Positions 858 to 37,541 of a stretch of DNA of 40,118 nt are shown piece by piece. The stretch lies in the sequence record PZ379598.1; one strand, written 5' to 3'. The stretch is from a phage. Each line of letters begins with the position of its first letter. Positions within the stretch are counted from its first letter, which is position 1. The position numbers were made by a program, and so were the translations under genes. The notes below the pieces were generated by a model. It was not told the DNA's origin. It saw only the letters and a program-made list of their open reading frames with translations, and did no database searches.

Positions 858-2624
858 CTAGTGGAACGTAACGTATGCCCCTAGTCCAAGCTCGTCGTCC
901 GTATCGTGAGTTACCCGGACCCCATTGTCCCAGAACTCAGTGTGGATGGACTCGAAGCCTTTCCGTGGGTTCTCCATCTGTTCCTCCAGCCACTCCTCAG
1001 TGACTTCACGTTCTCCTTTGTTGGCATCCTTAGCCATAGACTCAACGAAGAACTGTACACCGATAGCCAGCGCATCAAGTCGGTCATCGTGTGCCAAGGC
1101 TCCACGTTCACGAGAGATACGTGTCATCTGGTAGAAGAGAGAGTAGATAGGGTTACGAACACCATCCTTATCAGAGGCCGACTGGTAGTCTTGGACGATA
1201 GCAGCAGCGTTAACGATAAGTCGGTGAGACCCCATGATAGGCTCCAGAACGTCACAGATGCGGAGTTCTTTCTGACCCTTACTCTTCACTTCAGTTACAG
1301 CCGCAGGATGGATACGGGCCGCTACAGGCTTGAATAGCTCAAGGTACATACCATCACCGAAGTTACCCTCAATGACGTATTCGTTGACCTTCCACTTACG
1401 ACCAATCTTAGCCAAGGCTTCCAGCGTAGAGTCTTCATAACCACCACGCATACCACCAACTTCCATAGCGAAGATGTAGCCGTTGAGCTGGTACAGTACC
1501 GCATAACCAGTTTCATCCTTACCACGACCACTAGGGTCAATGACCAGAATCTTCTGGGTGTACGAGCTAAAGGCAGAGCCTACAGTCTGATACGTGTGGT
1601 ACGAGTCACCCATGAGTCCAACGTTAGGAACGTCCTCACGCTTGTTCTGAGGGTTCGGCAACCATTGGTAGACCATTGGGCTGGACGCTGGGTCCAAGTC
1701 GGCTACGATAAGGTCACGGAGCTTCAGAGGGTACTTCTCGGCATCACTCAGGTTCGGGTTAAGCATGAACTGTAGAGCGAAGCCAGCTTTACCGTAGGAC
1801 AGCTCACGTTCCTTCAGGTCCGTATCATCGAAGCGTACTTCATCAGTCGGACGCCAGTAGAAGGACTCAGGGTCCTCTTCCAGCTCTGCCTGAAGCATAG
1901 GAGCCAGACGGTCGCCGTAAGACTGCCAGTCCTTCCTGTCGCGTGGATAACGAGCGGGCCAGATAGTAGTGGTGTACCCACGACCTTCCAGCTCACGGTA
2001 CAGGGTCATCTCGTTCTGAGGAGTACCCAGATAGATGATCGTACCTCCCGGCTTCAGGATAGCGTCGAACTCTTTCACAAGCTCTGATAGACGGTCTCGT
2101 GCAGCCTGAGTCGCTGAGTTGTTCGGAACCTCCACGTCATCGGCAATCAGGATGTCAGCACGACTACCAGTCAACTGACCAGTGATACCAACGGACTTAA
2201 CCGAAGGTGAGTGGTCTGGCTTGGCAGGTCCCACGTCGAAGCTGATAACCGCATCTCGCTGCCCCTGTTTAGGTTTGAGTTCCTGAAGCTGAGGCATGAG
2301 GTCGATGATTCGCTTGATGAAGATGGAGTTCGCATCGGCTCGTTCCTTTGAGGCCGACACAATCATGAACTTCAAGTCTGGGTTATTCCATAGCTTCCAG
2401 ACCACAAAGCCACAGGTCAAAAACGACTTGCCAATACCACGGAACGCCTGAAGGATGAAGCGGCGATTATCCCCAGCAGCCAGCTTCTTACACATATCTA
2501 TCTGGCAGCGGGTTGGAACCGGAAGACTTAGTGCTTTCCAGAGAACGAAGATGAAGAACACGAAGTCGTCCCTCATCCTTTGGACCATTTCTGCCTGTCT
2601 TTCAGCGGGTGTTTTCTTAGACAT
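858..2624 (-). CDS. gp19: Terminase large subunit (T7 gp19-like)
   Basis: 588 aa; near-colinear identity with recalled T7 gp19 ([58 protein letters not shown]). Confidence 0.95.
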
Positions 2625-3054
2625 ATAGTCCCTCCAGCATTAGGTCCCGGACAGCGATAGACTCCTCTAAAGTGGGACGTGTTGTTCGCATATAGGCATT
2701 CCCGCGTTTAACCTGAATCCTATAACCATTCTGGTGACGGGTAACGCACTTCACTCCTGTCTTAGAGTCATAATGGCTACCAGTATTCCAAGTGTTTTCA
2801 GCGGCAGTAACGAGCCGTAAGTTACTTAAGGTATTATTGCTAGGGTTCCTGTAGATGTGGTCTATTTGCATACCATGCGGTATAGGACCATTGGTTAGTT
2901 CCCATATCACACGATGGGCCCGCTTACTGCCTAGACTTCGTGTCTGTACTATCCAATATCCCATCCGACTTAATGTTCCCACAGGCTTTCCAGTCCTAAC
3001 GGAGACCAGACCGGATGGACTAGCCGGGTCCACTTTGTAGTAATCACTTAACAC
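2617..3054 (-). CDS. HNH homing endonuclease
   Basis: 145 aa with an HNH core ([41 protein letters not shown]); overlaps the spanin 3' end and the terminase start. Confidence 0.8.
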
Positions 3055-4147: not shown

Positions 4148-4375
4148 TTACTTCTGTTCAAGAGCAGAAAGTCTGGCTTCGATTCTTTCCAGTTTTCTTC
4201 TCTGATAAGCGGCTTCAGCAAAGAAAATTCCGTCAGGCCGAACACCCCACTCCTCACCCTCTTCGTGAATAACCACCTCGGTGTATACAGGTTCTTCCGT
4301 AGTAGTGACATTACCCTCCTCGTCAGTGTGTTCAACGATTTCATTGTGCGAAAATACCGTACCAGTATTACTCAC
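4148..4375 (-). CDS. Hypothetical acidic protein (75 aa) downstream of the tailspike
   Basis: ORF begins with GTG overlapping the tailspike stop (GTGA overlap), has an acidic N-terminal half and a helical C-terminus (AEAAYQRRKLERIEARLSALEQK). No T7 counterpart between genes 17 and 17.5. Confidence 0.5.
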   Translation of the reverse strand: MSNTGTVFSHNEIVEHTDEEGNVTTTEEPVYTEVVIHEEGEEWGVRPDGIFFAEAAYQRRKLERIEARLSALEQK

Positions 4376-6903
4376 TTAGACATAACAGCTAATGCTTCCT
4401 GCATACGCTTAATAGTACGCCGCATCAACGCAGCCTCTAATATCAGTACTTCCTCGTAACGAATACCGTAGCGGGAACCTGCTGGTGTAATCAGTTTACG
4501 AGAGCCATTGGCATCTTCCTCGTATACATCATCCCAACTGTCGAAGCACAGGAAGCCATAGCTATGTGCATCTATACCGTGACGTTCGAAGGCCTCCTTA
4601 GCTCGCTGAGCGATGATGCCGAAGTGCCATCTAGCTGAGTCTGCACCCTTCTCCTCAATTCGGTCCAAGTACTGAAACTGCACAAAGTCAACTTCAGACC
4701 AAGCATCCAGTAAAGCATCTGAGATATTAAGAGGCTCTGTTTTATCCCTAGCATCTGAGACAACAGTGAATGCTGATTGAGTAAAACCGCCAGACCATGC
4801 TCGACTTGCGGAACCTAATGCGTATGTATTAGTACTATCTGGGGTCATTGCATCAGAACCTAACTGCAAATAACCTGTGCTACTGGTAGGAAGACGCACG
4901 TTGCCGTTGGTGAGGGACACTGTCCGATAAATACCATCAGAAGTAAATAGTCGAACTTGAGAAGATGCACCACCACCTACAGCTAATGACACAGCACCAT
5001 CCCCAAGCATTCTGTACTTATCAGCAGAAGTAAGAACGCCTGAAGGGAGTGACATGGACTTAATCCGCCATTCGAACCTACCTGACATACTACCTATGTA
5101 CTGCCCTAAGGCAGGTGCGTGCACTACGTTACTATTACTAGTGCCGTCAATAGTAGCTGCACCGTCAATAGTACTAACAGAACTGAGAAGGTCGTTTCTC
5201 CTGCCAGGGTGTTTTACCTCTACGAAGTTACGGGTAGAGCCGGATTCGAAAGTAATAACACCTGTAGCACTGTAGCTAGGAAATACAGACGCATAGTTGT
5301 TATTAGCTGTACCTATAAAGCGTGCAATTGTAGCAGTCTGCCCTTGTCCTGAAGAGTTAGTACCATCACATCCTGACATAAGCACATTATTTATGACGTT
5401 ATCAGACCCTTCTACGGTAACGCCATGAGCCTGATTAGCATCAGAAGTTGAGTAATCTACGAGCACGTCTGAGATTAAGTTCGTATTTCCTTTGCCTGCA
5501 ACAACCGCTGCATACTTAGGGTTATTAGCCATCACCCCCTTTATAATGTTATTAGAAGGAGCTATTGGCCCTTCAGTGCCGTTGTAAGTTACATGCTGGC
5601 AATCTGCCCCTATAACATTACTGACTATGTTGTAACTGGCTGTACCTTTCAACTCTACTGCTCCGAACTGAGGGTAGTTCTTAGCAATAACGTTATCTAT
5701 GAGGGAGTTAACTGAGGAGTCAGCAAGTACGCATCCGGCTGCCTTATTAGTAGCATAGCCGGAATAGCCACCTCGAATGCCTTTAATCATAAGTCCATCA
5801 GGTGGCGCATCATTAGGGTATGCGATTAAACTGAAACCAGTACCTTTAACGTTTGAGAAGTTAACGTCACTTACAGTAACATCGCTTCCACCCGCAAGAG
5901 ATACCTGCTGTCCCTGAGTTGTATCAGTCGCCTTATTACTTTCTACCGTAATATTACTTAAGCGACCTGTACGTGGATTGTTAAATACTAAGTAGTTACC
6001 TGTACTGGAACGGTGACTTAGCACGCCACTACCCCTACCGTCTAAGTTACAGTAATTACTATTAATACCAGAACTAGAGAATACACCTTCTGATGCTACG
6101 ACAGCTTTTTGAGAATTTAGTGAAGCAGCTATATTCTCCGTACTATCTGTTACACCATCCCCTTTAGCACCCCAGCCTCGAACATCACCCTCATCACGCC
6201 ATCTTGCCATCTGCAATTCCGGGTAGAGTATTGCCCCTTCCGGGTTTGAAATCTGACTTCTTAAAGCAGCATCACCAACACTAACCCACGCACCTAATCC
6301 AATCCCACCGGAAGTTTCAGGAGTTGAACCAGCAGGAACGTTCTTTGGAAGCGTACCATCCCAGCGGTAATAATCACCATCCTCTTCCCATAGCAGGACC
6401 TCGCTCCATGTTGTAACGTTGTAGCCTTTCTCGAAGGAGCGACGGGTAATATAGCCAATTAGACCAGCTTCCCTGATACTCGCAGCGATTCGGCGTGCTT
6501 CGTCCTCGCTATCCTTAGCGTTGCCAGCAGAGCTACCAGCAGCATCGGCATATTCCTTCGCTAAGTCAACCGTTTGGTCTCGACCTTCTTCTGCAATATG
6601 GATAGCCTGAAGCTCTGAATTGGTCAGGTCACTAGCTGTCAACACTGAGCCATTCCTGAAATCTACCACTAAGTCAGTTCCAGTCTGACGGTGAATACGA
6701 ACTATGTCGAAACCTGATTGGTCAACCAACATCTCAATCATCGTTGGATTAAGGAATCGGTAATCTCGACCAACTTCCAGTACACGGTTCAGGGTAGGGT
6801 TAGAGCTATTCACCAGCGTAACAACAACAAACGTTCTGGCTAGGTAGTCGAACTCAATCCTGTACTGAGTGTTTCCTGAAGGGAATTGTGTAATCGTGGA
6901 CAT
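4372..6903 (-). CDS. gp17: Tail fibre / tailspike: gp17-like N-terminal adaptor, central beta-helix (putative polysaccharide depolymerase), C-terminal intramolecular chaperone (peptidase S74-like)
   Basis: N-terminal ~150 aa match recalled T7 gp17 (EYLAR.FVVVTL, DYRF, LVDF.NGS.L.A.DL). The central region has repetitive N..I.NV..G beta-helix-like segments. The C-terminus has SDARDK (Ser-x4-Lys) and HFGIIAQRAKE resembling S74 chaperone motifs. Confidence 0.85.
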   Translation of the reverse strand: MSTITQFPSGNTQYRIEFDYLARTFVVVTLVNSSNPTLNRVLEVGRDYRFLNPTMIEMLVDQSGFDIVRIHRQTGTDLVVDFRNGSVLTASDLTNSELQAIHIAEEGRDQTVDLAKEYADAAGSSAGNAKDSEDEARRIAASIREAGLIGYITRRSFEKGYNVTTWSEVLLWEEDGDYYRWDGTLPKNVPAGSTPETSGGIGLGAWVSVGDAALRSQISNPEGAILYPELQMARWRDEGDVRGWGAKGDGVTDSTENIAASLNSQKAVVASEGVFSSSGINSNYCNLDGRGSGVLSHRSSTGNYLVFNNPRTGRLSNITVESNKATDTTQGQQVSLAGGSDVTVSDVNFSNVKGTGFSLIAYPNDAPPDGLMIKGIRGGYSGYATNKAAGCVLADSSVNSLIDNVIAKNYPQFGAVELKGTASYNIVSNVIGADCQHVTYNGTEGPIAPSNNIIKGVMANNPKYAAVVAGKGNTNLISDVLVDYSTSDANQAHGVTVEGSDNVINNVLMSGCDGTNSSGQGQTATIARFIGTANNNYASVFPSYSATGVITFESGSTRNFVEVKHPGRRNDLLSSVSTIDGAATIDGTSNSNVVHAPALGQYIGSMSGRFEWRIKSMSLPSGVLTSADKYRMLGDGAVSLAVGGGASSQVRLFTSDGIYRTVSLTNGNVRLPTSSTGYLQLGSDAMTPDSTNTYALGSASRAWSGGFTQSAFTVVSDARDKTEPLNISDALLDAWSEVDFVQFQYLDRIEEKGADSARWHFGIIAQRAKEAFERHGIDAHSYGFLCFDSWDDVYEEDANGSRKLITPAGSRYGIRYEEVLILEAALMRRTIKRMQEALAVMSK

Positions 6904-6953: not shown

Positions 6954-6971
6954 CCTATAGTGATAGTTTAG
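6954..6971 (-). promoter_or_regulatory. Phage RNAP promoter (phi17 analogue)
   Basis: Plus-strand CCTATAGTGATAGTTTAG; upstream of the tail fibre gene. Confidence 0.8.
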
Positions 6972-9900
6972 TCCTTGATGTGGATGCCTTGCTCCTCAAA
7001 CGTTCCAAGCAGCAGCTTCTGGGTAATGGGGTCGTTCGGAACCAGTTCACGTAACGTATTATACATCCCGGTCATGTAGTCACGCTCGTTGACACGAGTA
7101 TCAGCCTTGAGGTAGCCAGCCAAGTTGTAAGCCGAAGCGCCAACGTTAGCAGCATATCCGAAAGCTGGAACCTGCTCCAAGAAGTTACCAACAACATTCA
7201 TCACAGGGTCACTTGTAGCTGCACCATACGCGATGGCACGCTCAGGCTTCTCTGTAGGAGAACGAGGTAGGATAGACGAACGGAGCATCTTAGTGTCCTC
7301 ATATCCAGCGATGCCTCCCAGAATGTTAGCTACCCCAAGTGGGCCACCAAGATGTGAACTACGGGACAGGGCCGCATAGCCAATCATCGTTGGGTCCAGA
7401 GCTTGCTTAAGGTAGTCACGGTCTCGACCATCCTGCATAGCATAAGCCTTGACATGCGCCTGAGCCATGTAGTAGATACCAGCCAGACCCATAGACATCA
7501 CGGTCGACAGTGCAGCGTCAATCGCTCTGTTGTTCTTCGTGGCGTTATAGAAGGTTCGCATGGTTCTCCCATTGATAGACTTGATGACGAAGTTCTTAAA
7601 CTGAAGTACAGTCTTAGCGAGAGGACCATAAGCCTTGGCGTCCATGTTTGACAGCTTATGAGGCCGGAGTAACGTCTCGTCAGCGATGGTGTCACCCATA
7701 CGCCACAGGTCCATAGCCCTTGGGTCCTGACTGAACGCCTTCTTATCCTTGATGGTGTACTTCCCGTCTGGCCCACGAGTCACTGACTCACGGATTAGGG
7801 ACTTAATTCCACTCCACTGCTCGTCAGATATACCAGCGGTCTTCAGCCAGCGGTCATCGAACTTACGCTTACTACCAGTCAGGCTATGCTCCACGATGTC
7901 AGACAGGAAGCCTTGACGTCCAGCATCTAACAGGTAGTTGGTCGTACCGTTGAGGACTTTAGTGAACGGAGAGCGTACTGCAAGTTCACCAGTGTAATAC
8001 TTAGCAGTCCCCAGAGCTGTAGCTGTACCACGACTAAGGTCACTGTAAGATCGCAGACGGTCGATAACATCCTGTTTAGACGGACGGATTGAGTCGTCCA
8101 ATTCTTTACCGAAGATAACATTATGCAGGTCCTTAATCTCCGAGGCCCCAACCTTCTTGTTACGGAAGGCTAGGTCACGGAAAATTGGGACTCCATGAAG
8201 CATTGCACGAACGTTACCACGAGCCAGCATACCACCAATCTCCGTTAAGTTCTGAACACCCATGTAGGCATTCTTAGCGAAGAACGATAGGTCTGTCATT
8301 GTGCGCATCACTGTAGCGAAGGCTGCATCATCAGCACCATCACGTCGAGCACGACCAGTGAGAATCTTCAAGGTGTCACGTAAGGTAGATACCTCACCTT
8401 TCAACTTACCGTCATCCCCAGCCTTGTTCATCATGGTCTCAACCAAGTCCTTCATGTCCTTCGTGGTCTTTCCTGTACCAGCCATGATAGCGATGTCCCC
8501 ATTAATTCTACGGTTGTACGCCGGAACAATCTTGTCCATGTCCCACTCACGCAGATTGTTGACACTGAACGTCTGACCGTTAGGTAGGACGATTGACATA
8601 TCGCTATCGAACAGGTTACGAGCCTCAAGGAAGCTGTTGTTCTCCAGACCCACCAGACCATTGATGTTCTCTTCCATTACGGATGAACGCTCGAACTGCT
8701 CGGTGTGAGAGATACCATAAGCCTTATCGTTGGCGTACTTATCGACCGCAGCCGCAAGTCCTTCTGGAGTCAACGTAGGGTCAGCCTCTAAGAGTGCCTC
8801 GTCCACACGTTTCTTGACCTCAGGTCGAGACGCATAGCTGGTCAACCATGACTTCTTGATGGCCTCCTGTAGTGCCTCTGGACTTCCAAGCTCCTTGATG
8901 TACAGCTCCTTCATCTGTTTGCTATACACATGCGGGACGTAGGTTCCCTTGAAGTGGCTACCCGGAAAGATAGACTGAGCGTCTGGACGACCAAACATCG
9001 CTGGGTTCTCCATCATCTCACGCTTGGCGTCGAACTGGTTCTTCAGTAGGTCATAGACTTTCATTTCTCCCGGAGTCAGTTCAGCCTTCAGGTTTCCGCT
9101 ACCGTCTTCGATAGCCATAGACACACGCTGGTAGATGTCCTGACGGAATGCGCCAGAGTCTCGCCAGAATGCAGTCTGGAAGTACGGGTCCTTTAGTGCC
9201 TCAGTAACCGCATCGTCGATGTCGTTGTAGAACCGATGGTCCACAGAACGAAGTCTCTCGAACACGTCTGACGCAGTTGTCCCGATTTTACCTGAGGCCC
9301 CAGACTGCATACCAGTAGGTGAACGCACTAAGTCAGCAGCTACTCCACGAATCTCAGGGTTCTCAGACCGAAGCAGCTTCAGGCCAATCTCGGTAAGTCC
9401 ACCAAGGTTCACACCAGCAGCGGCACGTTCCGGCTCAATCACTTCGTCAAAGACTTGACGTGTCTTAGGGTTCAGAGGGTTCTCACCAATCAGGATTGAA
9501 CCGTCTTCCAGTCGTACACTTCCCGGCTCATTCGGAACGTCAGCGAACTTAACGCCTTGATGACTAAAGGTCTGCTCACCTTCCTGAATAGGTAGACGAG
9601 ATAGGTCCTGACCATCAACGTTACGAGCAGTCTCACGAGCTTCCAGACGTGTAGCTGGACCAGCAAACTCATTAGTGTTGCGGCCTAAGGCTCTACCTAG
9701 TCCATCAGCGATAGCAGTCATACCGCCACCGAAGAGAGCACCACCAAGGATAGCTTCAGCCACATGAGCATCACCACCAGCCACTGAGGTACGTGCCATC
9801 TCAGACACACCAGCCAGTGCTCCAGATTGAGCCGCCACTGTGAACATCTTGTTTACCAGCTTACCGCCCTTACCAACCTGTCCAGCAATAGGAACGTAGG

Positions 9901-10855
9901 TCAGAGGGTCCACACCAGCGCCAATCACACCAGCGGCTAACTGAGCACCAGTCCCAGCCTTGGCCTTCTCTTGGTCCAACTTCTGGTTCTCAAGCGCCAA
10001 GTTAATAAGCTCGGTCAGGTTCTGAGGAGAGCCTCCAGTAATGACTCCGTAATACTGAGGCAAAACACCAGCGTTACGAATCTGGTCTAGCTCCTCACGA
10101 GACCACTTATGGTTGTTCCATCTGGTTGGGTTGAACACATCGCCAATGACATCCAGTGAGTCCTCAGTCTGACCAGCTCGTATAGCCACGCCGACCATAG
10201 AGTTCTTCACTTCAGCTTCTGTAGCCGCACCGAAACCGAACCACGTAGAGCGGTCCTCTTGCTCCTGCATGGTCTCTCCAGTAGCCTTATAGAACATCTC
10301 ACCGAACGATTCGTTGGGAGCTTCAGGTGCTTGACCATCAATGTTCAGACCAGCAGCGGTCGGAAGGTTCTCACCCAGAGCTACTTTAGGTTTAGCCTTG
10401 AGTCCTTCCGTGAGTGCGTCAAATACGTTAGCGCTTACTGGTGGAGTCTTTGGGCTAATGCCATTGAGTGCTCTTGCGACTCCCTTCTGATAGACTTCTG
10501 GGTCGTACCGGGAGCCTGTCTCATGGTAGCCGATAGCCTCAGACAGAGAGGCGAGGACATCATGGTTCGTCAGGTCGATACTTTGTGTTGCTGGAATACC
10601 AGTCGCAGCCACAACAGAGTTGATGTAGGACTGAGTGTCGTTCTCGCTCGGAGGTGCCCATCTGTTGATAATCTTCTCGATAGAGTCATAACCTTGGCGA
10701 CCGTAGCTTTGAAGGGTTTTCGCTAATGCTCTGACCCCAGATTCAGGACTGTCGAAGATAACGAATGCACCATCATCGCCTATAGCACCTTCCCACTGGT
10801 CTTTGGACTTACGGATATTGCCCGGATTTGCGTTCCTTACACCACGTGTTGCCAT
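6968..10855 (-). CDS. gp16: Internal virion (core/ejection) protein D (T7 gp16-like) with a divergent N-terminal domain
   Basis: 1295 aa; long colinear similarity to recalled T7 gp16 from about residue 185 onward (STWFGF, TRWN.H.W..EEL, VTGGSP.NL, VRSPTGMQSGASGK, MENPAIFG, NGDIAIMG.TGKTTK, RAMDLWR). The first ~180 aa do not resemble the T7 transglycosylase domain. Confidence 0.9.
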   Translation of the reverse strand: MATRGVRNANPGNIRKSKDQWEGAIGDDGAFVIFDSPESGVRALAKTLQSYGRQGYDSIEKIINRWAPPSENDTQSYINSVVAATGIPATQSIDLTNHDVLASLSEAIGYHETGSRYDPEVYQKGVARALNGISPKTPPVSANVFDALTEGLKAKPKVALGENLPTAAGLNIDGQAPEAPNESFGEMFYKATGETMQEQEDRSTWFGFGAATEAEVKNSMVGVAIRAGQTEDSLDVIGDVFNPTRWNNHKWSREELDQIRNAGVLPQYYGVITGGSPQNLTELINLALENQKLDQEKAKAGTGAQLAAGVIGAGVDPLTYVPIAGQVGKGGKLVNKMFTVAAQSGALAGVSEMARTSVAGGDAHVAEAILGGALFGGGMTAIADGLGRALGRNTNEFAGPATRLEARETARNVDGQDLSRLPIQEGEQTFSHQGVKFADVPNEPGSVRLEDGSILIGENPLNPKTRQVFDEVIEPERAAAGVNLGGLTEIGLKLLRSENPEIRGVAADLVRSPTGMQSGASGKIGTTASDVFERLRSVDHRFYNDIDDAVTEALKDPYFQTAFWRDSGAFRQDIYQRVSMAIEDGSGNLKAELTPGEMKVYDLLKNQFDAKREMMENPAMFGRPDAQSIFPGSHFKGTYVPHVYSKQMKELYIKELGSPEALQEAIKKSWLTSYASRPEVKKRVDEALLEADPTLTPEGLAAAVDKYANDKAYGISHTEQFERSSVMEENINGLVGLENNSFLEARNLFDSDMSIVLPNGQTFSVNNLREWDMDKIVPAYNRRINGDIAIMAGTGKTTKDMKDLVETMMNKAGDDGKLKGEVSTLRDTLKILTGRARRDGADDAAFATVMRTMTDLSFFAKNAYMGVQNLTEIGGMLARGNVRAMLHGVPIFRDLAFRNKKVGASEIKDLHNVIFGKELDDSIRPSKQDVIDRLRSYSDLSRGTATALGTAKYYTGELAVRSPFTKVLNGTTNYLLDAGRQGFLSDIVEHSLTGSKRKFDDRWLKTAGISDEQWSGIKSLIRESVTRGPDGKYTIKDKKAFSQDPRAMDLWRMGDTIADETLLRPHKLSNMDAKAYGPLAKTVLQFKNFVIKSINGRTMRTFYNATKNNRAIDAALSTVMSMGLAGIYYMAQAHVKAYAMQDGRDRDYLKQALDPTMIGYAALSRSSHLGGPLGVANILGGIAGYEDTKMLRSSILPRSPTEKPERAIAYGAATSDPVMNVVGNFLEQVPAFGYAANVGASAYNLAGYLKADTRVNERDYMTGMYNTLRELVPNDPITQKLLLGTFEEQGIHIKD

Positions 10856-11286
10856 GTCTTTCTCCTCAATATATTTCGTATGGAAACGACGCTTACCCCG
10901 TATAAGGTGGAAAGCTCAGATACTTTTAATGGACTGGAGCGTATTTCCCTAACAGATTCCTCTGTCAGTATAGCTCTGCCTGCTCCACTACCTCTTGCCT
11001 GTCGGCCTCTGGATACCTTATCTGCAATGTTGTCAGCCTGCGTTCCTACTTCAAGGTGTTCAGGATTTATGCATGATGGATTATCACATTTATGCCTAAC
11101 AACATAGCCATCTGGTATTGGCCCCTTATTTATGGAGTAGGAGAGACGATGTGCCATATACTTAACCCTAGCCACCATTATCCTTCCGTATCCTTCTCCG
11201 TCTAAGTGGCCTGTGAATCGGATACAGCCAGACTCTTCAGCTACTGACAGTTCTGCCAGTCTCTCACTGGCTGTCCCGTTCTTCAT
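10837..11286 (-). CDS. HNH homing endonuclease with C-terminal helix-turn-helix-like tail
   Basis: 149 aa; HNH core (GYGRIMV...HRLSYSINKGPIPDGYVVRHKCDNPSCINPEHLEVGTQADN); wedged between the gp15 and gp16 genes. Confidence 0.8.
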   Translation of the reverse strand: MKNGTASERLAELSVAEESGCIRFTGHLDGEGYGRIMVARVKYMAHRLSYSINKGPIPDGYVVRHKCDNPSCINPEHLEVGTQADNIADKVSRGRQARGSGAGRAILTEESVREIRSSPLKVSELSTLYGVSVVSIRNILRRKTWQHVV

Positions 11287-11288
11287 GT

Positions 11289-13571
11289 TTACTCCTTACC
11301 GATTAGTACGTTTGCGATACCCTCCAGTGAGACGTCATTGTACATCCCACCGCGCTTCTCGATGTTGGCCTCTCGGTCAGCTCGACGTTTGTCGCCAGCA
11401 GCTTTAGTCCCGACGATACGCGAACGCTTGTTAGCGTCACGTTCTGCCTGAGCGTATGCGGCATCTTGTGCCTTCTGCTGTTGTTCGCGGTAGAGTTTAC
11501 CTACAAGTTCTTTATCGTAGCGAATACGAATAGTCCCTGTAGCGTCTTGGAGGAAGATAGAGCCGTTCTGTTCAACAACGGACAACTGAGAGTTCACTAC
11601 CCAAGGGTTGGCCTTAATGAGCTGCTTACGAGCGGTGTCGATAATGTCTCGACCAACCTGCCACGACTCTGGGTTATCCCCGACCATAAGCTGGTGCTTT
11701 GACACCATGCCGATGGACTTACCGTCAGAACCTTCAGACTGGAACGTTACGGTATTTTCATTCAGCCATCGTTGAGTCTGCTGAGTTGCAGCATCAGCGT
11801 TACCTGTACGGTAGTACCATGAGTCCCATACCTTACGAGCACTTGAGTCCAGAGACGTTGGGAGGCGAGACAACTGGGTGTTCTTGGAGTCGTTCTTCAG
11901 CTCCTGCCACGCCTTGTCTGACTCCATGCGCATCTCACGGCTTTGACTTGCAGCTTGCTTATCAGCTTCAATCATCGTCTGAGGGTCCAGACCCATCTTG
12001 TCCATCTGGTCGAACGTAGAGAACAACTGAGCTTGGTCAGGATACAGAGCAGCAAAACTTGAAGGGTCCTGAGTGTAGGCACGACGAAGAGACTCGAAGC
12101 GTTGCATCTTGTCTGGGTCGTACTGTCCACGGATGACCGCAGCTTGCCACTCACCAGCAGCGTCCTGAGTAAGCGTCTGGAATGCATTACGGAACGGACC
12201 GTTGTTAGTGTCAGCTCTTAACAATGCCACCTTCTGAGCGTCCTTAGCAGCCTCAGGGATGTCCATCTGGTCAATCTGCTGTAGCTTTGCAGACGCATAG
12301 TTGTTCATGTCTGAACGCTTGAACTCTCCTGTAGCTTCAGAGACCGGAAGGTCCTCATAGTTGGTGGACACGTTGTCCCCAGCCAGACGTCGCTGATACA
12401 CTTGGTCGATGACCAGTTGCTTGTTCTGAGTCTGGATTAACTTAGTGTTCTCCTTCGCCTGTTCAGCAGACTTACGCTTGACCGCTTCCAGTAAGCTGGC
12501 TTCGGCATTAATAAGCATCTGACGCTGAGGCGTGAGTTCTTCCCCCGGCTGAAGCAGGTTGTTCTGCTCCTTGAGTTTCTGAATCTGGGCCAGACCGATG
12601 GTTGGGTCGTCCTGAAGAATCGCAGACTGAACGCCTAACGATAAGTCTTCCTGATACTTAGCCACCAACTTGTACTCGGTACCTTGAGCCTCAACCACAG
12701 CAGCATTGAAGACGTCAGGGCCTACAATCTCTTCGATGGTAGCATCAATACCGTTAAGGGTGATACGCTCGCCACGGACTTGCTGTAGGAAGTTTGAGCC
12801 TCCTGACTTCTGGATTGCGTCACGGACCGTCTGGGTGATTACCTCTCGTGCTCGCTGGTCCGAAGGGATAGCAGCAGTCGTCAGTCCATCCCGAAGGTAG
12901 GCCATGAAGGTCTTTCCAGACTCAGGCGAACGCATCAGGTCCCCATCGTTAAGGAACGAGTTCATCTCAATACGAGTGTTCAACATTGCTGTCTCTTCAG
13001 ACTGCTTGCTGAAATACTTATTGAAAGACCCATAGATAGCGATGTTTCGGTCTGTGATGTTATCGTTGAACCCGCGCTGAAAGAACTCGTCGGTAGGGTT
13101 AATACCCGCCTCTTCAGCATAGGACTTAGCGGCGTCCTGAAGTCTCTGGTGGCGATACTCTTCCATGTCCTGACGTGTACGGAACTCACCGTTCTGAATC
13201 TTAACGTTAATCTCGTCATCAACCGCAAAGGCAGCGTTACGGCCCGTCTTGACTCGAAGTGCTTCCATAGCGTAAGGGTCATCCTGATACAGCAATGTAC
13301 CGTTCTGAATAGCCTCACGTCTTTGCTGAGGTGTCAGCTTACGGATAATCTCGTTAGACCGCTCGTCGGCCCGTGTCTTCTCCTCGTCTTTGAACTGCTT
13401 GTATAATCCAGTACCAGACTCAACGAAGTTGGTTAACGCCCGAGCAAGACCTGAGTCACCAGTTGGAGCCTGAACGCTGGCTGCTTGATAGTTGACGGCG
13501 ATAGTTTTACCCGGAGCCCTGCCACGACCCATAGTCCGATTAGCCAGAGCTGATTCAATATTACTAGCCAT
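11289..13571 (-). CDS. gp15: Internal virion protein C (T7 gp15-like)
   Basis: 760 aa, located between the gp14 and gp16 homologues; size and position match T7 gp15 (747 aa). Confidence 0.8.
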   Translation of the reverse strand: MASNIESALANRTMGRGRAPGKTIAVNYQAASVQAPTGDSGLARALTNFVESGTGLYKQFKDEEKTRADERSNEIIRKLTPQQRREAIQNGTLLYQDDPYAMEALRVKTGRNAAFAVDDEINVKIQNGEFRTRQDMEEYRHQRLQDAAKSYAEEAGINPTDEFFQRGFNDNITDRNIAIYGSFNKYFSKQSEETAMLNTRIEMNSFLNDGDLMRSPESGKTFMAYLRDGLTTAAIPSDQRAREVITQTVRDAIQKSGGSNFLQQVRGERITLNGIDATIEEIVGPDVFNAAVVEAQGTEYKLVAKYQEDLSLGVQSAILQDDPTIGLAQIQKLKEQNNLLQPGEELTPQRQMLINAEASLLEAVKRKSAEQAKENTKLIQTQNKQLVIDQVYQRRLAGDNVSTNYEDLPVSEATGEFKRSDMNNYASAKLQQIDQMDIPEAAKDAQKVALLRADTNNGPFRNAFQTLTQDAAGEWQAAVIRGQYDPDKMQRFESLRRAYTQDPSSFAALYPDQAQLFSTFDQMDKMGLDPQTMIEADKQAASQSREMRMESDKAWQELKNDSKNTQLSRLPTSLDSSARKVWDSWYYRTGNADAATQQTQRWLNENTVTFQSEGSDGKSIGMVSKHQLMVGDNPESWQVGRDIIDTARKQLIKANPWVVNSQLSVVEQNGSIFLQDATGTIRIRYDKELVGKLYREQQQKAQDAAYAQAERDANKRSRIVGTKAAGDKRRADREANIEKRGGMYNDVSLEGIANVLIGKE

Positions 13572-24470: not shown

Positions 24471-24760
24471 TGCTTGACCTCGAATCGCAGGTTAGATACT
24501 CCGAACTGGTCATAACCAAAGTCGTCTACCAGCTCCTCCTTGATGGTCTTCTTGAGGGCAATTTCAAGGGCAGACTCAGGGCCTGACTCGATTGCGGTTT
24601 TGACCAGAGCCAACTGAAGACCATCCAGCTTCTCACCCTCAGCGTAGGCTTTAGTCATCTCAGCCAGTTGGCGACACATGGTATCTTCTTCCTTTGAGTT
24701 AACAACCATCTTCAGATCAAAACTCACACGAATACGTTTAGTAATAGCCATTAGTGACAC
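24467..24760 (-). CDS. gp5.5: T7 gp5.5-like protein (in T7, binds host H-NS)
   Basis: 97 aa; position and the N-terminal MA.TK...VSFD pattern match my recollection of gp5.5, with moderate certainty. Confidence 0.6.
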   Translation of the reverse strand: MSLMAITKRIRVSFDLKMVVNSKEEDTMCRQLAEMTKAYAEGEKLDGLQLALVKTAIESGPESALEIALKKTIKEELVDDFGYDQFGVSNLRFEVKQ

Positions 24761-25176
24761 TCCTTCTTAACAAGTTTGCGCTCACGGTTCGTCTTAATGA
24801 CGTGTTCGCGTTTTGTAATACACTGTAGATGCTCTATGTTGCAGCACCCACGGTTCAAGCACAAATGGTCTATTTCGTAGCCATTTGGTATAGGTCCGCG
24901 CTTCTGCTCCCACACCCATCGGTGGAACATGAAGGCGAACTTGTTGCCCTTCCTGTAGCTTCCCATGGAGTACCGGAAGTACCCATCTTGGTTCCTCTTG
25001 TGGGACACGCAGACGATACATCCGGTAGGCATGGTGTGGAAGCGTATGGTCTGGGTTCGAGGGTCAATGACACTCTTTCCACGTTGGTCCAATCTTACCC
25101 TCCGTATCAAGTTCACACTTGAAGTTATAGAAGCGTCCGACCTCGCGCATCGCCTCTTGAGCAATACGGACGACAT
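24751..25176 (-). CDS. HNH homing endonuclease overlapping the DNA polymerase 3' end
   Basis: 141 aa with an HNH core (CIVCVSHKRNQDGYFRY...FHRWVWEQKRGPIPNGYEIDHLCLNRGCCNIEHL); AGGAGA upstream of the ATG at 25176. The first ~113 nt overlap the polymerase C-terminal codons in another frame. Confidence 0.75.
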   Translation of the reverse strand: MSSVLLKRRCARSDASITSSVNLIRRVRLDQRGKSVIDPRTQTIRFHTMPTGCIVCVSHKRNQDGYFRYSMGSYRKGNKFAFMFHRWVWEQKRGPIPNGYEIDHLCLNRGCCNIEHLQCITKREHVIKTNRERKLVKKECH

Positions 25177-27235
25177 CTTCTGCTATCTCCTGAGTACGGC
25201 ACGCTATCTGCAATTCATCGTGAATCCAAGCCATTAGCGCAAAGTCGCCGTCCCATCCGTTACCGTAACCAGCCTCTTCAAGTTTCTTCTCAGTCAGTAC
25301 CATCCAGTGCTTACAGACAACCGCACCGTCCCCCTGAAGTAGGGCGTTAAGTGCTGAGTGTGGAGACCGGATGTGAATACGACGACCATCCAGACCTTTC
25401 AGCCAGCGACGTTTCCACTTGACGATATTCTCACCGTCCACCCACTTAGAGTCTGAGATTAACGTATTACTCACAGCTTCCCTGAGGTCCTTGATGGCTG
25501 GTGTACCCTCAATGAATTTCTTCATCAGAGCTGAACCTTCCTTCTTACCACCGCCTACTATCAGTCCAATCTTAGCGGCCCCTGCACCATACAGGAACGC
25601 GTAGATGAACGTCTTAGCGTTGTTACGGAAAGCCTCATGGTCGTGGTTAGACTTATCGCGTTGGACGTTAGGTGCTAACCCAGCGTTTACTGCGTTGGCC
25701 CAGTGGATGTCACCTTCTACCACAGTCTTCGCATATGCACCACCGTCAAACGGAGCCGCTCTGTTCCCAAGACAACGAAGCTCAAGACCTGAGGCATCCA
25801 CACCAACTTGAATCCAAGGGTCTGGCTTACCGTCCTTCTTGTTCCACGCTGCACCGAAAGCACCACGGCAAGTCTCACCATATGGAGCACCGTTAGCCGG
25901 GACCTGAGCCATGTTTGGTGAACTATGGGTCGCACGTCCGGTTACTGCCCCGCATGGGTTTATTGAGCCGTGCATACGTCCGTCTGGACCTACAAGTTTC
26001 AACCATGCGTTCTTACCTTCAGCAGCCTGACCGATGCGCTTCTGGACTACCAGGTACTCACGGACCAGCTCTACGCAAGCCTGAGCCTCTGCGTCTGGTA
26101 ACTTAACGTGTTCCAACGTCTCGTCATCGACTACAGGTTTCCCGGTGTCAGTGAAGTCCACAGGCTCCCAGCCACGCTCCATCAGAACTTTCGCTAAGTG
26201 GTCTCCGCTTCCCGGATTAAACTCAACGTAAGTGATAGGTGTGAACGGCGCTCCCTCCATCGTGTCTCGTGAGTCGAACTCGCAAGGCTCCAGACCTAAG
26301 CGTTGAGCTTTGTTCTTCGGCTTCTTGAATACTGACCCGACCTTCGGATACACGACTCGCGGATACTTCGGAAGGTCCTTGCCTGTCCGTGGGTGCTTGA
26401 AGAACTCCTTGCCTCCCTTTGGTGCGTACCAGCTGCCGAAAGTCGAACGCAGCTTGTCCAGCAGCTCTGCACGTTTGACGGTGAGTTCACGATATAAACC
26501 TTCGACCATCTCGGTGTTCATCGGATAGCCGTTACGCTCCATCTTCGCACAGGTCCACGCAGCATCATGTTCCAGACGCAACGCATAAATCTGGTCGAAA
26601 GCGAACTGTTCAGACTGGAAGTAATACTTGTCAGTCAGGAACTTCTTGAACAGCGCCAGCGTGACCACAACGTCTTGAACGTTATAGTCCAGCATCTCCT
26701 GAGACGGGAACATCCATTCGTCCCCAGCCTTATATTCGATACCTTCGGCCTTGCACTTGGCAACGTAATCGTGTTTGTACTCACCCTTCATCTCACCAAG
26801 ACGATAGCCCCAAGCCTCAAGAGACTGGCGTCCCATCATCTTAGGAGGCAGACGACCAGCTTTCACCGCGCCCATGTCTGAGAACTTAATGTTTGGATAC
26901 ATCAAGCGGCCTAGCACCAAGGTATCAATCATCTTGTGTTTCGGGAAGTTAAAACGTTTCCCAAAGTACAGACGCTTCAGCTTGTCTATAGCAGGGACGT
27001 CATAGTTGATACCGTTGTGAAATACCAGCATACCATCAGGCGATGCGGCAATCTCTTCAACTTTATGAACATACTCTTTGAAGCCACCGACGATACCGAC
27101 CATCGGAGCTACCCCATACTTAAGGGTCTCATTCGACTCGGCGTTAATCAGGACCCCACAGTGAAACTGGGAGACTGTATCAAGGAGACCGTTGGTCTCG
27201 ATGTCAGAACCCCAGATACTCTTAAGGTCAAACAT
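25064..27235 (-). CDS. gp5: DNA polymerase (T7 gp5-like, family A)
   Basis: Identity with recalled T7 gp5 (DIE.N.LL..V..FHCGV, FHNG..YDVPA, LEAWGYRLGEMKGEYK, DYNVQDVVVT, C-terminal LDTEGK.GP.W..CH). Start taken at internal ATG 27235 (GGAGGA 6 nt upstream); the track start at 27271 lies inside the upstream hairpin. Confidence 0.95.
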   Translation of the reverse strand: MFDLKSIWGSDIETNGLLDTVSQFHCGVLINAESNETLKYGVAPMVGIVGGFKEYVHKVEEIAASPDGMLVFHNGINYDVPAIDKLKRLYFGKRFNFPKHKMIDTLVLGRLMYPNIKFSDMGAVKAGRLPPKMMGRQSLEAWGYRLGEMKGEYKHDYVAKCKAEGIEYKAGDEWMFPSQEMLDYNVQDVVVTLALFKKFLTDKYYFQSEQFAFDQIYALRLEHDAAWTCAKMERNGYPMNTEMVEGLYRELTVKRAELLDKLRSTFGSWYAPKGGKEFFKHPRTGKDLPKYPRVVYPKVGSVFKKPKNKAQRLGLEPCEFDSRDTMEGAPFTPITYVEFNPGSGDHLAKVLMERGWEPVDFTDTGKPVVDDETLEHVKLPDAEAQACVELVREYLVVQKRIGQAAEGKNAWLKLVGPDGRMHGSINPCGAVTGRATHSSPNMAQVPANGAPYGETCRGAFGAAWNKKDGKPDPWIQVGVDASGLELRCLGNRAAPFDGGAYAKTVVEGDIHWANAVNAGLAPNVQRDKSNHDHEAFRNNAKTFIYAFLYGAGAAKIGLIVGGGKKEGSALMKKFIEGTPAIKDLREAVSNTLISDSKWVDGENIVKWKRRWLKGLDGRRIHIRSPHSALNALLQGDGAVVCKHWMVLTEKKLEEAGYGNGWDGDFALMAWIHDELQIACRTQEIAEDVVRIAQEAMREVGRFYNFKCELDTEGKIGPTWKECH

Positions 27236-27258
27236 GGTTAATCCTCCGTTTAGTCTAA

Positions 27259-27299
27259 TCATAAAGGCCACTCTATGTGAATGACCTTGAGTCTAGACC
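27259..27299 (-). promoter_or_regulatory. Putative RNase III processing hairpin (R4.7 position, before the DNA polymerase gene)
   Basis: Minus strand GACTCAAGGTCATTCACATAGAGTGGCCTTTATGATTAGAC: a 10-bp stem with G-U pairs, nearly identical to my recollection of the T7 R1.1 core (AAGGUCAUUCGCAAGAGUGGCCUUUAUGAUUGACC). Confidence 0.65.
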
Positions 27300-29522: not shown

Positions 29523-29981
29523 TTAACCGTGGTCGGAAGTGACCAGTTCGTTAGTGTTAAGCCAGCGCTGCAAGTCGAAACTTGGGCAAGCCTTTGGTGC
29601 TACATCGTGGTGAGCCTTTATTTCTGCCTGAGGATACAAGTCCTTCAGGTCAGCCAGCTTGTTGCGCAGGGAGTTCATCTGGGCTGGAGTGAAGTTAGCT
29701 TCAAACTTGCCCTTAGCGTCAATTCCACCTACAAGGCAGACGCCTACAGACCGTGAGTTCCAGTCCTTAACGTGTGACCCTACGACATTGACAGGGCGTC
29801 CCTCTTCCACAGTACCATCGCGCTTGATGATAAAGTGGTAGCCTACGTCCAGCCAGCCTTGCTGCTTGTGCCACATACGGATGGTCTCTACCCCGATGTC
29901 CATCTCTGGCTTGGTAGCCGAACAGTGAACGAAGATAGCGTCGGTCCGGGACCGTGGATTGAACTGTACCTTACTTACCAT
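29523..29981 (-). CDS. gp3.5: Lysozyme / N-acetylmuramoyl-L-alanine amidase (T7 gp3.5-like)
   Basis: 152 aa; near-identical core to recalled T7 lysozyme (VQF..R..TDAIFVHCSATKP, QGWLDVGYHFIIKRDGTVE.GR, GVCLVGGID.KGKF.ANFTPAQM, HH.VAPKACPSFDL.RW, NELVTSD). Confidence 0.95.
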   Translation of the reverse strand: MVSKVQFNPRSRTDAIFVHCSATKPEMDIGVETIRMWHKQQGWLDVGYHFIIKRDGTVEEGRPVNVVGSHVKDWNSRSVGVCLVGGIDAKGKFEANFTPAQMNSLRNKLADLKDLYPQAEIKAHHDVAPKACPSFDLQRWLNTNELVTSDHG

Positions 29982-34859: not shown

Positions 34860-37541
34860 TTAAGCGAATGCAAAGTCTGAAGACAAGATGTCTTCGATAT
34901 TCAGTTTACCTTTCTTCGGAAGCTCAGGCAACTTGTCTCTCTGGCTCTCGTGAAGCTGGTATTCAAACTGCTCGTAGAAGTCAAGCAGCACATCGTTGTC
35001 GCGGTATGTCTCGACCATCGTCTCACGGACTCCACGGAACAGATACTCAGCGTCAGCCGGGATGGTCCCGAAGCTATCGTGAATCACTGCGAATGACATC
35101 ACGCCATATTTGCGGTGCGTGTGGACTACAGTCTTGCGGAGGTGGCTACCATCTTGTGAGTGGACGAAGTTCGGGCTAATGCCTGACTCCTGCTTGTGCT
35201 TGTCCAGCTCTTTCTTCGTGCCTTTGTTGACGGTAGGCTGAAGGTTGAATGACCCTAAGAACATCAGGTTCAGACGAGTGGTGTCCTTCTTGCGGTATTC
35301 CTGCCAGACAGGGAAACCATCAGGTGTGACCCAGTGTACCGGAAGACAAGGCTTCAGGATTTCTCCAGTCTTCTTGTCCTTCACTTCAGCAGCAAGCAGC
35401 TTGGCAGCACCCTGAAGCCATTTCATCGCGTCAACCGCAGCAACTACGGTCACACTCACAGCTTCCCAAATCATCTTAGCCATGAAGCGAGATGCTTGGC
35501 TTGGTTCAGTGAACATAGCGCCAGACCCTGAGTCAATCGCTGGCATCACGATGTCCTCGTAAACTTGGTCTGCGAAGCCGTACTCTTTCGACCCGTAGGC
35601 CAGAGTCATGACCGAACGCTTAGTGACCTTTCGTGACATACCGTAGGTCAGCCACTGACGGGCAAGCTCTCGTGTCCCCAGCTTGAGACGCTCGGTAATC
35701 TCACCAGTTTTCTTGTCCTCGTGAGTTACCATCTCGTTGTCCGTACCGTTAACCAGTAGGACTTTAAGCTCCTCCTCAATGCGGTCAGACACGATGCGGT
35801 AGATGTCTTGGACCTTACCGGATGGCGTCAGGTTTACTGCATGTCCACCGATGTGGTCGCGAAGCATAGCGCTGAAGTGCTGAATCCCAGAGCAGGACCC
35901 ATCGAACGCTATCGGCAGCGAGCAGGAGTAAGACAAGCCGTGGTGCATTACGCCAGCATACTCGAAGCAGAACGCTAGGAAGCAGAACGGAGAGTCTAAC
36001 TTGCCCCACCACTCAATGCTATCCATCGGTGCCTTGGCAGCAGCCATGATGTTGTCGTGGTTATCTTCCACCCACTTGATACGCTCCTCGAAGGTGACTT
36101 TATCGACACCCGCGCAGTTTGCACCGTGGACCTTCAGCCATTTGAAACCATCAGCACCAATAGGCTTACCGACTGCCAGAGTCAGAAGACCCTTTTGCAT
36201 GTCGTTACCCTGAGGGTTGAACATCGGCACAGCGTAGACGCGACCGCGCCAGTCCATGTTATACGGGAACCAGATGGCCTTGAACTGAGAGAACTTGTTC
36301 GCTTGGTTGACGATAAAGCTCAGTGACAATCTTCGTGACTGTCTGGCCTTCTCGCGGCGATAGATACCAGCAGCAGCCTTCTTCCATGCCTTGAGTTCTT
36401 CTTCAGTCTCACCCGCATAGTCCTCAGGCTTCAGCGGTTCCATCTGAGGGATGTCATCAATAGGCGTGTTGTTCAGCTTCTCGACCATGTTCACCACTTC
36501 CAGAACCTTCTTGTTCACTTTCCAAGGTGTATTCTGAATGATGTTCACAGCGTCATAGACTTCAGGCATATACACGTCTTCGTAGCGTGCTACCGCAGAC
36601 TTAGACCCTAAGCGAATCAGTGGTAATGGTCTGCGTCCTTTGGCCCAGTACCCACCGCCTACGACACCAGTCCACGGCTTAGGTGGAACGACGCAAGGCT
36701 GGTAGACTGGAGCTATACCCGCAAGGCTGAATCCTCGTTGTGCCATCTTCTTGACCCAGAAGTCTGACAGGTGGACCATCTCAACGTCAGCCGCTGCATT
36801 GCCAGCACCGTAACGCTTAAGCTCGACCAGTTGTGTGGACTGGATGACAATCTCCAGCATCTTGATTCCAACGTGGACAGCCTCGGTCGGACTCCAAGTC
36901 CCCCACGCATCTTCCAGTTGGCCTTGCTCCAGCATGGATGCCTCGACCGCTTGCATGTAGGCTTTCTTGTAGGACGCCCCGGCCCGCTTATTCAGGTTAT
37001 CAGCTATCGCCTTCTTGAAGTGCTCTTTCTCCTTGTCACGGATGCGACCGAAGCGGATTTCGTCCTCAAGTGTGCGACCTATCGCTGAGGCCATCGGTGT
37101 AATCGGTATCCCTTCAGGCTTGACCAGCTTGGAGAGTATGACCTTCAGTATGATAACCGCAGCAGACTCGCAGGAGATGCGCAAAGAGCGGACCTTTACG
37201 GCCTTCTCTTCAGTGCTCAACATGGTGAACGCTACGCTCGGACGAGAGGTTGACAGCTTCCCGTCTGGACCTTCATGCCACTCCTTGACGGCTTGCGCAA
37301 TCTTAGGGACCAGAGTCTGCATCAAAGGCTTGGCGACCTGATTGTCTGCCAGTTCCCCTCGCTCAGTCTGTCTCTCAAGGTTCTTGATGAAACGTCGCTC
37401 GCCTTCAGTGTATGCCTCGTGCTCAAGCTGAAGCTGTTTGACTGCAAGGTCTTGCCCGTAGTGGTCAGCCAGTAGGTTAAACGGCTCAATGGCGTTCGAC
37501 ACATCAGAGAAGTCGTGCTTGTCAATAGAGATGACGCTCAT
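34860..37541 (-). CDS. gp1: Single-subunit DNA-directed RNA polymerase (T7 gp1-like)
   Basis: 893 aa; colinear with recalled T7 RNAP from the N-terminus (DFSD...PFN.LADHYG, LEHE.Y..GE.RF) through the C-terminal FAFA. Confidence 0.97.
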   Translation of the reverse strand: MSVISIDKHDFSDVSNAIEPFNLLADHYGQDLAVKQLQLEHEAYTEGERRFIKNLERQTERGELADNQVAKPLMQTLVPKIAQAVKEWHEGPDGKLSTSRPSVAFTMLSTEEKAVKVRSLRISCESAAVIILKVILSKLVKPEGIPITPMASAIGRTLEDEIRFGRIRDKEKEHFKKAIADNLNKRAGASYKKAYMQAVEASMLEQGQLEDAWGTWSPTEAVHVGIKMLEIVIQSTQLVELKRYGAGNAAADVEMVHLSDFWVKKMAQRGFSLAGIAPVYQPCVVPPKPWTGVVGGGYWAKGRRPLPLIRLGSKSAVARYEDVYMPEVYDAVNIIQNTPWKVNKKVLEVVNMVEKLNNTPIDDIPQMEPLKPEDYAGETEEELKAWKKAAAGIYRREKARQSRRLSLSFIVNQANKFSQFKAIWFPYNMDWRGRVYAVPMFNPQGNDMQKGLLTLAVGKPIGADGFKWLKVHGANCAGVDKVTFEERIKWVEDNHDNIMAAAKAPMDSIEWWGKLDSPFCFLAFCFEYAGVMHHGLSYSCSLPIAFDGSCSGIQHFSAMLRDHIGGHAVNLTPSGKVQDIYRIVSDRIEEELKVLLVNGTDNEMVTHEDKKTGEITERLKLGTRELARQWLTYGMSRKVTKRSVMTLAYGSKEYGFADQVYEDIVMPAIDSGSGAMFTEPSQASRFMAKMIWEAVSVTVVAAVDAMKWLQGAAKLLAAEVKDKKTGEILKPCLPVHWVTPDGFPVWQEYRKKDTTRLNLMFLGSFNLQPTVNKGTKKELDKHKQESGISPNFVHSQDGSHLRKTVVHTHRKYGVMSFAVIHDSFGTIPADAEYLFRGVRETMVETYRDNDVLLDFYEQFEYQLHESQRDKLPELPKKGKLNIEDILSSDFAFA

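Follow-up and report, generated by a model that had tools for sequence, protein, structure and literature searches.

The gene 16 product of phage T7 (gp16; PDB 7eyb, 7k5c, 6yt5) starts with a lytic transglycosylase domain of the SLT/GH23 type (PF01464) with the catalytic residue E37. This domain comprises residues 1-156, and residues 157-228 form a 'molecular tape' that binds gp15 (PMC8954989). In phage SP6 a lysozyme is located on the internal head protein gp36, and the gp15-like proteins of K1E/K1-5 possess lysozyme activity (PMC5380687, PMC8954989).

Enzymes of the Enc34/M4Lys type are known from lysis cassettes. ORF39 of the Hafnia phage Enc34 (PDB 7q47) and M4Lys of the Salmonella phage BSPM4 are proteins of ~230-260 aa with a C-terminal transmembrane domain. 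Enc34 ORF39deltaC lyses outer-membrane-permeabilised cells of E. coli, P. aeruginosa and H. alvei (PMC8943055). M4Lys degrades purified peptidoglycan, the products identified by LC-MS indicating an N-acetylglucosaminidase, and the same study also points to a possible endopeptidase activity (PMC7143992). Within this type, activity is known for Enc34 ORF39deltaC and M4LysdeltaTMD only (PMC8943055, PMC7143992), and the bond specificity of the family is that of the one LC-MS study on M4Lys. In Enc34, catalysis is assigned to Glu131, whose conserved partners are Trp79 and Tyr95; the crystals did not contain a bound sugar (PMC8943055). The literature that we found naming PHA02564, the designation of the domain in CDD (entry 'V virion protein'), concerns endolysins.

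Here we describe gp16 of a phage whose DNA was analysed over a stretch of 40,118 nucleotides (sequence record PZ379598.1, hereafter called the window). With a probability of about 0.85, the N-terminal SLT/GH23 domain of T7 gp16 (aa 1-156) is replaced in this phage by a module of ~130 aa belonging to the Enc34/M4Lys type, which would act at entry.

Results

The phage and its gene 16

As judged by the order of genes assigned by PHROGs, the window represents the genome of a T7-like phage, with its genes on the minus strand. A megablast search with the positions 9900-11400 matched 216 phage records, the best of which was Kayfunavirus PDP21P1 (96%), and this match places the phage by sequence among the K1F-like phages (Autographiviridae, Studiervirinae, Kayfunavirus). 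At least 80% of the query was covered in 15 of the 216 records, as expected of carriers of the HNH insert described below. Besides the RNA polymerase (34860-37541), a gp3.5-type amidase (29523-29981) and the tail spike (gene 17 product, 4372-6903, minus strand), genes for a ssDNA-binding protein, tail proteins, gp13, gp14, an Rz-like spanin and the large terminase were seen. The tail spike is chimeric: up to about aa 217 it consists of an N-terminal adaptor like that of T7 (phrog_27367), to which a tail-spike body (aa 209-843) is joined that matched phrog_14895 with 1294 bits; this gene 17 product differs from the endosialidase-type annotation of K1F.

The homologue of gene 16 (encoding internal virion protein D, an ejectosome component) is the ORF at 6968-10855 on the minus strand, which encodes 1295 aa. 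Its ATG is located at 10855 with GAGGAG 8 nt upstream, and the protein starts with MATRGVRNANPGNIRKSKDQWEGAIGDDGAFVIFDSPESGVRALAKTLQSY. The ORF is flanked by the tail spike homologue and by a homologue of gene 15 (internal virion protein C; 11289-13571, minus strand; phrog_1339, 1106 bits), with whose product gp16 is expected to pair in the periplasmic tunnel. According to the PHROG assignments and the neighbouring ORFs, the order gp13-gp14-gp15-gp16-tail fibre/spike is present, with a HNH homing-endonuclease ORF (10837-11286, minus strand; phrog_6254, 1.5e-34) intercalated between genes 15 and 16. The last 19 nt of this ORF overlap the start of gp16, and most Kayfunavirus relatives lack it at this site. 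The peptides that a preliminary description of this DNA had cited for an atypical N-terminus were located on the minus strand at the start of the gp16 ORF, the positions 10300-10855 corresponding to aa 1-185.

The body of gp16 matched phrog_342 with 1093 bits. By phmmer, a near-identical protein of 1295 aa named 'Gp29' (PDB 9vvp_L) was matched over its full length with 2812 bits. The entry 9vvp holds four chains of this protein, and our literature search did not find a paper describing it. The gp16 orthologue of CR44b is annotated with 'matches in mass spectrometry analysis'.

Extent of the replaced region

In a phmmer search of all PDB chains, T7 gp16 (7eyb_I and 6yt5_G, 'peptidoglycan transglycosylase gp16') aligned with the window protein from residue 125 only, and no T7 gp16 alignment was obtained upstream of it. 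With 7eyb_I, the residues 125-1294 of the query were paired with T7 152-1314 (1305 bits, E=0), in agreement with the earlier view that the rest of the protein resembles gp16. A BLASTP comparison of aa 1-180 with T7 aa 1-210 was without significance (E 1.1 and 1.8). In a three-way alignment, the junction lies directly upstream of GI[ST]PK, a motif common to the window protein (aa 132-136), T7 and phiA020. By these alignments the foreign block runs from aa 1 to about aa 131 (10463-10855), and the break is a clean domain boundary just before GI[ST]PK. The T7 transglycosylase domain ends at this same point. Thus, of the first ~180 residues that had been described as unlike T7, aa 1 to about 131 are indeed so, while the residues 132-185 proved to be homologous to T7; their poor conservation accounts for the overlong estimate.

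The junction is followed by a weakly conserved linker of aa 132-206 (10238-10462, minus strand), which begins with GISPK and was delimited by the three-way and HMMER alignments. It is the counterpart of the T7 'molecular tape' (157-228), by analogy to which it would bind gp15. Gene position and length class are shared with T7, the two sequences are about 55-60% identical from aa 125 onwards, and in both an N-terminal wall-degrading module is succeeded by a linker (gp15-binding in T7) and a membrane/cytoplasmic body. Apart from its N-terminal module, gp16 is on this evidence a normal T7-type ejection protein.

Identity of the N-terminal domain

By sequence and fold matches, the region of aa 1-131 (10463-10855, minus strand) was assigned to the Enc34/M4Lys-type (PHA02564) muralytic domains, in place of the T7 SLT domain. 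A phmmer search of the PDB with aa 1-180 yielded the Enc34 endolysin's catalytic domain (7q47_A, E 3.6e-13, query 3-123). The isolated N-domain matched phrog_873, 'endolysin', at 1.9e-51 and also PHROGs with annotations as a head protein, a tape measure protein and a 'tail injection transglycosylase', and tblastn gave identities of 36-40% to Chi-like and Enc34-like endolysins. An AlphaFold2 model, for which an alignment of 51 homologous sequences served as input, reached a mean pLDDT of 92.3 and a pTM of 0.85. When this model was compared with the PDB by Foldseek, 7q47 was the sole return (TM 0.83, E 1e-9). The predicted fold of the N-domain is the distinctive all-helical one of the Enc34 catalytic domain. 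Neither the whole protein nor the N-domain had a Pfam or NCBIfam match in the copies searched, in which we found no Pfam-A or NCBIfam model for the Enc34/PHA02564 domain. Because PHROGs, the sequence search of the PDB and the fold search all identify the domain, this silence reflects a gap in the libraries and not novelty. Hence, the domain swap in the wall-penetrating module that had been proposed was borne out, the new domain being a homologue, by sequence as well as by fold, of the Enc34 endolysin's catalytic domain. The suggestion of a different muralytic activity is supported by the match to the Enc34 type, a family with demonstrated peptidoglycan degradation (PMC8943055, PMC7143992).

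The preliminary description had also named the outcome that would speak against a swap, i.e. a divergent yet ordinary SLT/GH23 domain with an intact catalytic Glu. The GenBank label 'peptidoglycan lytic exotransglycosylase' of related phages would fit a highly divergent lytic transglycosylase of this kind, as would the very distant common ancestry of the Enc34-type, GH73 and GH23 enzymes for which the Enc34 authors argue (PMC8943055). However, all comparisons to the T7 SLT domain were negative. The Pfam SLT model (PF01464) was absent from the whole window protein and from aa 1-200 even at E<=1, whereas in the control, T7 gp16, it was found at 2.6e-31; hhalign of the N-domain family profile against the T7 SLT domain gave a probability of 0.12%; and the BLASTP comparison was non-significant, as mentioned above. 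A GH23 fold whose catalytic Glu lies close to the start of the domain (as E37 in T7) was not found in the N-domain, for which both structure prediction and fold search gave the Enc34 fold. Thus, we rejected the identity as a divergent SLT domain, which we regard as very improbable.

Conserved residues and selection

In the HMMER alignment to 7q47, the residues Trp79, Tyr95 and Glu131 of Enc34 correspond to W66, Y77 and E112 of the window protein. E112 (codon GAG, 10520-10522), situated in the motif HETG, is the predicted catalytic Glu. This residue and Y77 (TAC, 10625-10627) were invariant in the 51 homologues, and W66 (TGG, 10658-10660) was conserved in at least 90% of them. The signature RNANPGNIR (aa 7-15, 10811-10837; like the three codons on the minus strand) departs at position 9 from the family consensus RNNNPGNIR, whose N10, P11, N13, I14 and R15 were invariant and whose N9 was at least 90% conserved in the same set. 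Position 9 is occupied by A in the window protein, HC13, PDP21P1 and ST20, by S in CR44b and by N in EcoDS1 and K1F. All seven phages keep W66, Y77 and E112, and HETG was present in every Kayfunavirus gp16 examined, where the family has HENG with N113 at least 90% conserved. In the gp16 proteins of Minipunavirus, E112 and Y77 are kept and Tyr replaces W66. Enc34 ORF39 and M4Lys, about 36-39% identical to the N-domain, exhibit HENG; the domain described here forms the N-terminus of a presumably capsid-packaged ejection protein instead of belonging to a lysis cassette.

For the codons 1-131, the comparison of the window with EcoDS1 revealed a dN of 0.12 and a dS of 1.16 (omega 0.10). Therefore, the N-domain is under purifying selection and maintained by it. 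These data also bear on the assumption that the domain is inactive, its only use being that of a structural 'wing' attached to the gp15 tunnel or of an anchor that binds peptidoglycan. In its favour, the transglycosylase activity of T7 is dispensable under standard conditions (PMC8954989, citing Moak and Molineux), and Kayfunavirus gp16 departs from the family consensus at N113T, in some members also at N9. Nevertheless, E112 and Y77 were kept in seven Kayfunavirus and two Minipunavirus proteins and W66 in the seven Kayfunavirus proteins, despite an allele dS above 1. Together with the low omega and the largely invariant signature residues forming the groove, this makes an inactive domain unlikely.

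Divergence from EcoDS1 was unevenly distributed along the gene, the dS of 1.16 in codons 1-131 falling to 0.11 in codons 132-230 and amounting to 0.20 in the rest. At the nucleotide level, gene 15 of the two phages keeps 94-100% identity as far as its 3' end, while gene 16 is 68-84% identical from nt 1 to about nt 350 and 96-99% from about nt 360. The divergent patch of gene 16 starts at the insertion point of the HNH ORF 10837-11286. This mosaic pattern suggests a homing-associated co-conversion or the exchange of a cassette. The GC content was 45-47% in the HNH ORF and about 52% in its flanks, as in the N-domain (about 52%). A second small variant segment at aa ~93-110 (positions ~10500-10575) also occurs in HC13, though not in PDP21P1 or ST20. 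CR44b has a divergent HNH allele at the same site (53-73% identity). Altogether the genome contains three ORFs for HNH endonucleases, all on the minus strand. The second one (2617-3054) adjoins the spanin and terminase genes, and the third (24751-25176) overlaps the 3' end of a 735-aa ORF (25064-27271, minus strand), which we assume to encode the DNA polymerase. A scan for promoters and terminators disclosed nothing beyond the expectation from shuffled sequences.

Distribution of the domain

A tblastn search with aa 1-125 in 50,697 phage records matched 780 of them. In 224 records the identity was at least 60%, and among the matches listed these were all K1F-like genomes of ~38-40 kb or fragments thereof. 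The remaining matches (<60%) were endolysins, structural proteins, tape measure proteins and the like. A T7-type SLT N-terminus was found in 1222 records. K1F, the type species, carries the same gp16 N-domain, and judged by the sequences the Enc34-type N-terminus is a genus-wide trait of Kayfunavirus gp16. Within this lineage, the N-terminus that had been described as atypical is thus the standard one of the genus, K1F included. In K1F, EcoDS1, CR44b and other members, gp16 is the same protein with an N-domain 82-97% and a body about 97-99% identical to those of the window; the differences are allelic only, and the aa 93-110 variant links the window to HC13. We did not find an explicit published statement that gp16 of the K1F type is devoid of the SLT motif; the K1F genome paper (J Bacteriol 2005) was outside the coverage of our search.

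A second genus of the Studiervirinae, Minipunavirus, shares the Enc34-type N-domain at the same junction, as seen in gp16 of the Morganella phages MmP1, phiA020 and Lilpapawes. There, the domain is only 41-47% identical and has the exchanges P11V/I, R15M and W66Y at positions where the 51 other homologues show no or almost no variation. The catalytic Glu is retained (QENG). The exchanges may indicate either a fast-evolving lineage or altered contacts to the substrate. In a neighbour-joining tree of the domain, built to tell a single acquisition from two, Kayfunavirus and Minipunavirus were weakly supported sisters (bootstrap value 46/100).

Within a database of 1.84 billion cluster representatives (50%-identity clusters), a profile search revealed 18,269 members of the family at E<=0.001 and 12,760 at E<=1e-10. 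In these, the domain often resides at the N-terminus, in the middle or at the C-terminus of proteins of 500-1400 aa. Architectures of the Enc34/PHA02564 domain are promiscuous, ranging from stand-alone proteins of ~135 aa, called 'structural protein (P5)' in their source records, to the 500-1400-aa fusions, and one protein of 762 aa has four matched stretches. The module also occurs inside virion proteins of other phages, namely tape measure proteins, a 'tail injection transglycosylase' and structural proteins of Uetakevirus. The closest annotated phage relatives beyond the T7-like phages are the Uetakevirus podophages SPC32H and Tyrion (49-51% identity). In Salmonella phage SPC32H (2954-5767) and Enterobacter phage Tyrion (2242-4755), the domain lies in the middle of 'putative structural' proteins of ~840-940 aa. 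If these are ejection proteins, the same module would be used in parallel.

Discussion

In this phage, the N-terminus of gp16 is most likely, by analogy to T7, a virion-borne enzyme for local cleavage of peptidoglycan during DNA ejection. Gp16 would be part of the core inside the capsid and leave the particle through the tail upon infection. In the periplasm, the location being carried over from T7, the N-domain would then cut the peptidoglycan locally, and this opening would allow the gp15-gp16 tunnel to span the wall, as conceived for T7 (PMC8954989). The role of a virion-associated lysin is favoured because the phage encodes a gp3.5 amidase and a spanin of its own for lysis, and because the N-domain fills the slot of the T7 transglycosylase. 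One might argue for an auxiliary endolysin that functions late in infection rather than at entry, since the characterised members of the Enc34/M4Lys type are endolysins (PMC8943055, PMC7143992). Yet the N-domain is fused to a putative capsid-core protein of 1295 aa without an adjacent transmembrane or signal segment, the phage possesses a standard gp3.5 amidase and an Rz-like spanin, and the position is exactly that of the entry-associated transglycosylase domain of T7. We consider a late action extremely improbable. A function of the N-domain as lysis enzyme was likewise rejected in view of the separate gp3.5 amidase at 29523-29981.

The virion-associated lysin would differ from its T7 counterpart in both sequence and chemistry. 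T7 gp16 carries the SLT/GH23 domain with E37, whereas the module found here is unrelated in sequence and has the predicted catalytic residue E112. By analogy to M4Lys and to Enc34, whose active site is GH73-like, GlcNAc-beta-1,4-MurNAc would be the bond that is cut, and cleavage would be hydrolytic. The enzyme is thus probably an N-acetylglucosaminidase and not a lytic transglycosylase like that of T7; a hydrolytic cut of this kind would not produce the 1,6-anhydro-MurNAc that is formed by T7 gp16.

Many Kayfunavirus gp16 proteins (e.g. of HC13, OL362276; ST20, OQ860980; P762, MW876471) carry the name 'peptidoglycan lytic exotransglycosylase' or 'peptidoglycan transglycosylase', and that of JSS1 is annotated as 'endo-type membrane-bound chitopentaose'. 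None of these proteins contains an SLT domain. The names appear to have been transferred from T7 via the conserved body of gp16, and the proteins are probably not lytic transglycosylases. A correction of the annotation touches about 224 K1F-like records, many of them candidates for phage therapy. Since the very large Enc34/M4Lys class is without a model in the copies of Pfam and NCBIfam searched, standard pipelines miss the domain.

The divergent patch next to the HNH ORF raises the question of how mobile the module is. There is a small chance that the gp16 N-domain is an exchangeable cassette within and between genera of the Studiervirinae, the exchange being helped by HNH co-conversion, and that it constitutes a hidden determinant of the host range or of the range of conditions. 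If this is true, the swap of a lytic transglycosylase for a hydrolytic N-acetylglucosaminidase, possibly with an endopeptidase side activity, would alter the host walls and growth states that can be penetrated.

Like the proteins of SP6 (gp36) and K1E/K1-5, gp16 of this phage is an internal ejection protein to which a muralytic module has been added, type and carrier of the module differing by lineage; the enzyme families and the positions in the protein are different in those phages. The phage described here adds one more clear case in which podovirus ejection proteins have exchanged their muralytic modules at a fixed junction. The swap is a trait abundant in the databases, by which a characterised enzyme family is employed in a known role. 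The feature is genuine but unremarkable and leaves the picture of T7-like DNA injection unchanged. T7 and K1F represent a natural pair for asking whether the chemistry of bond cleavage matters in wall penetration.
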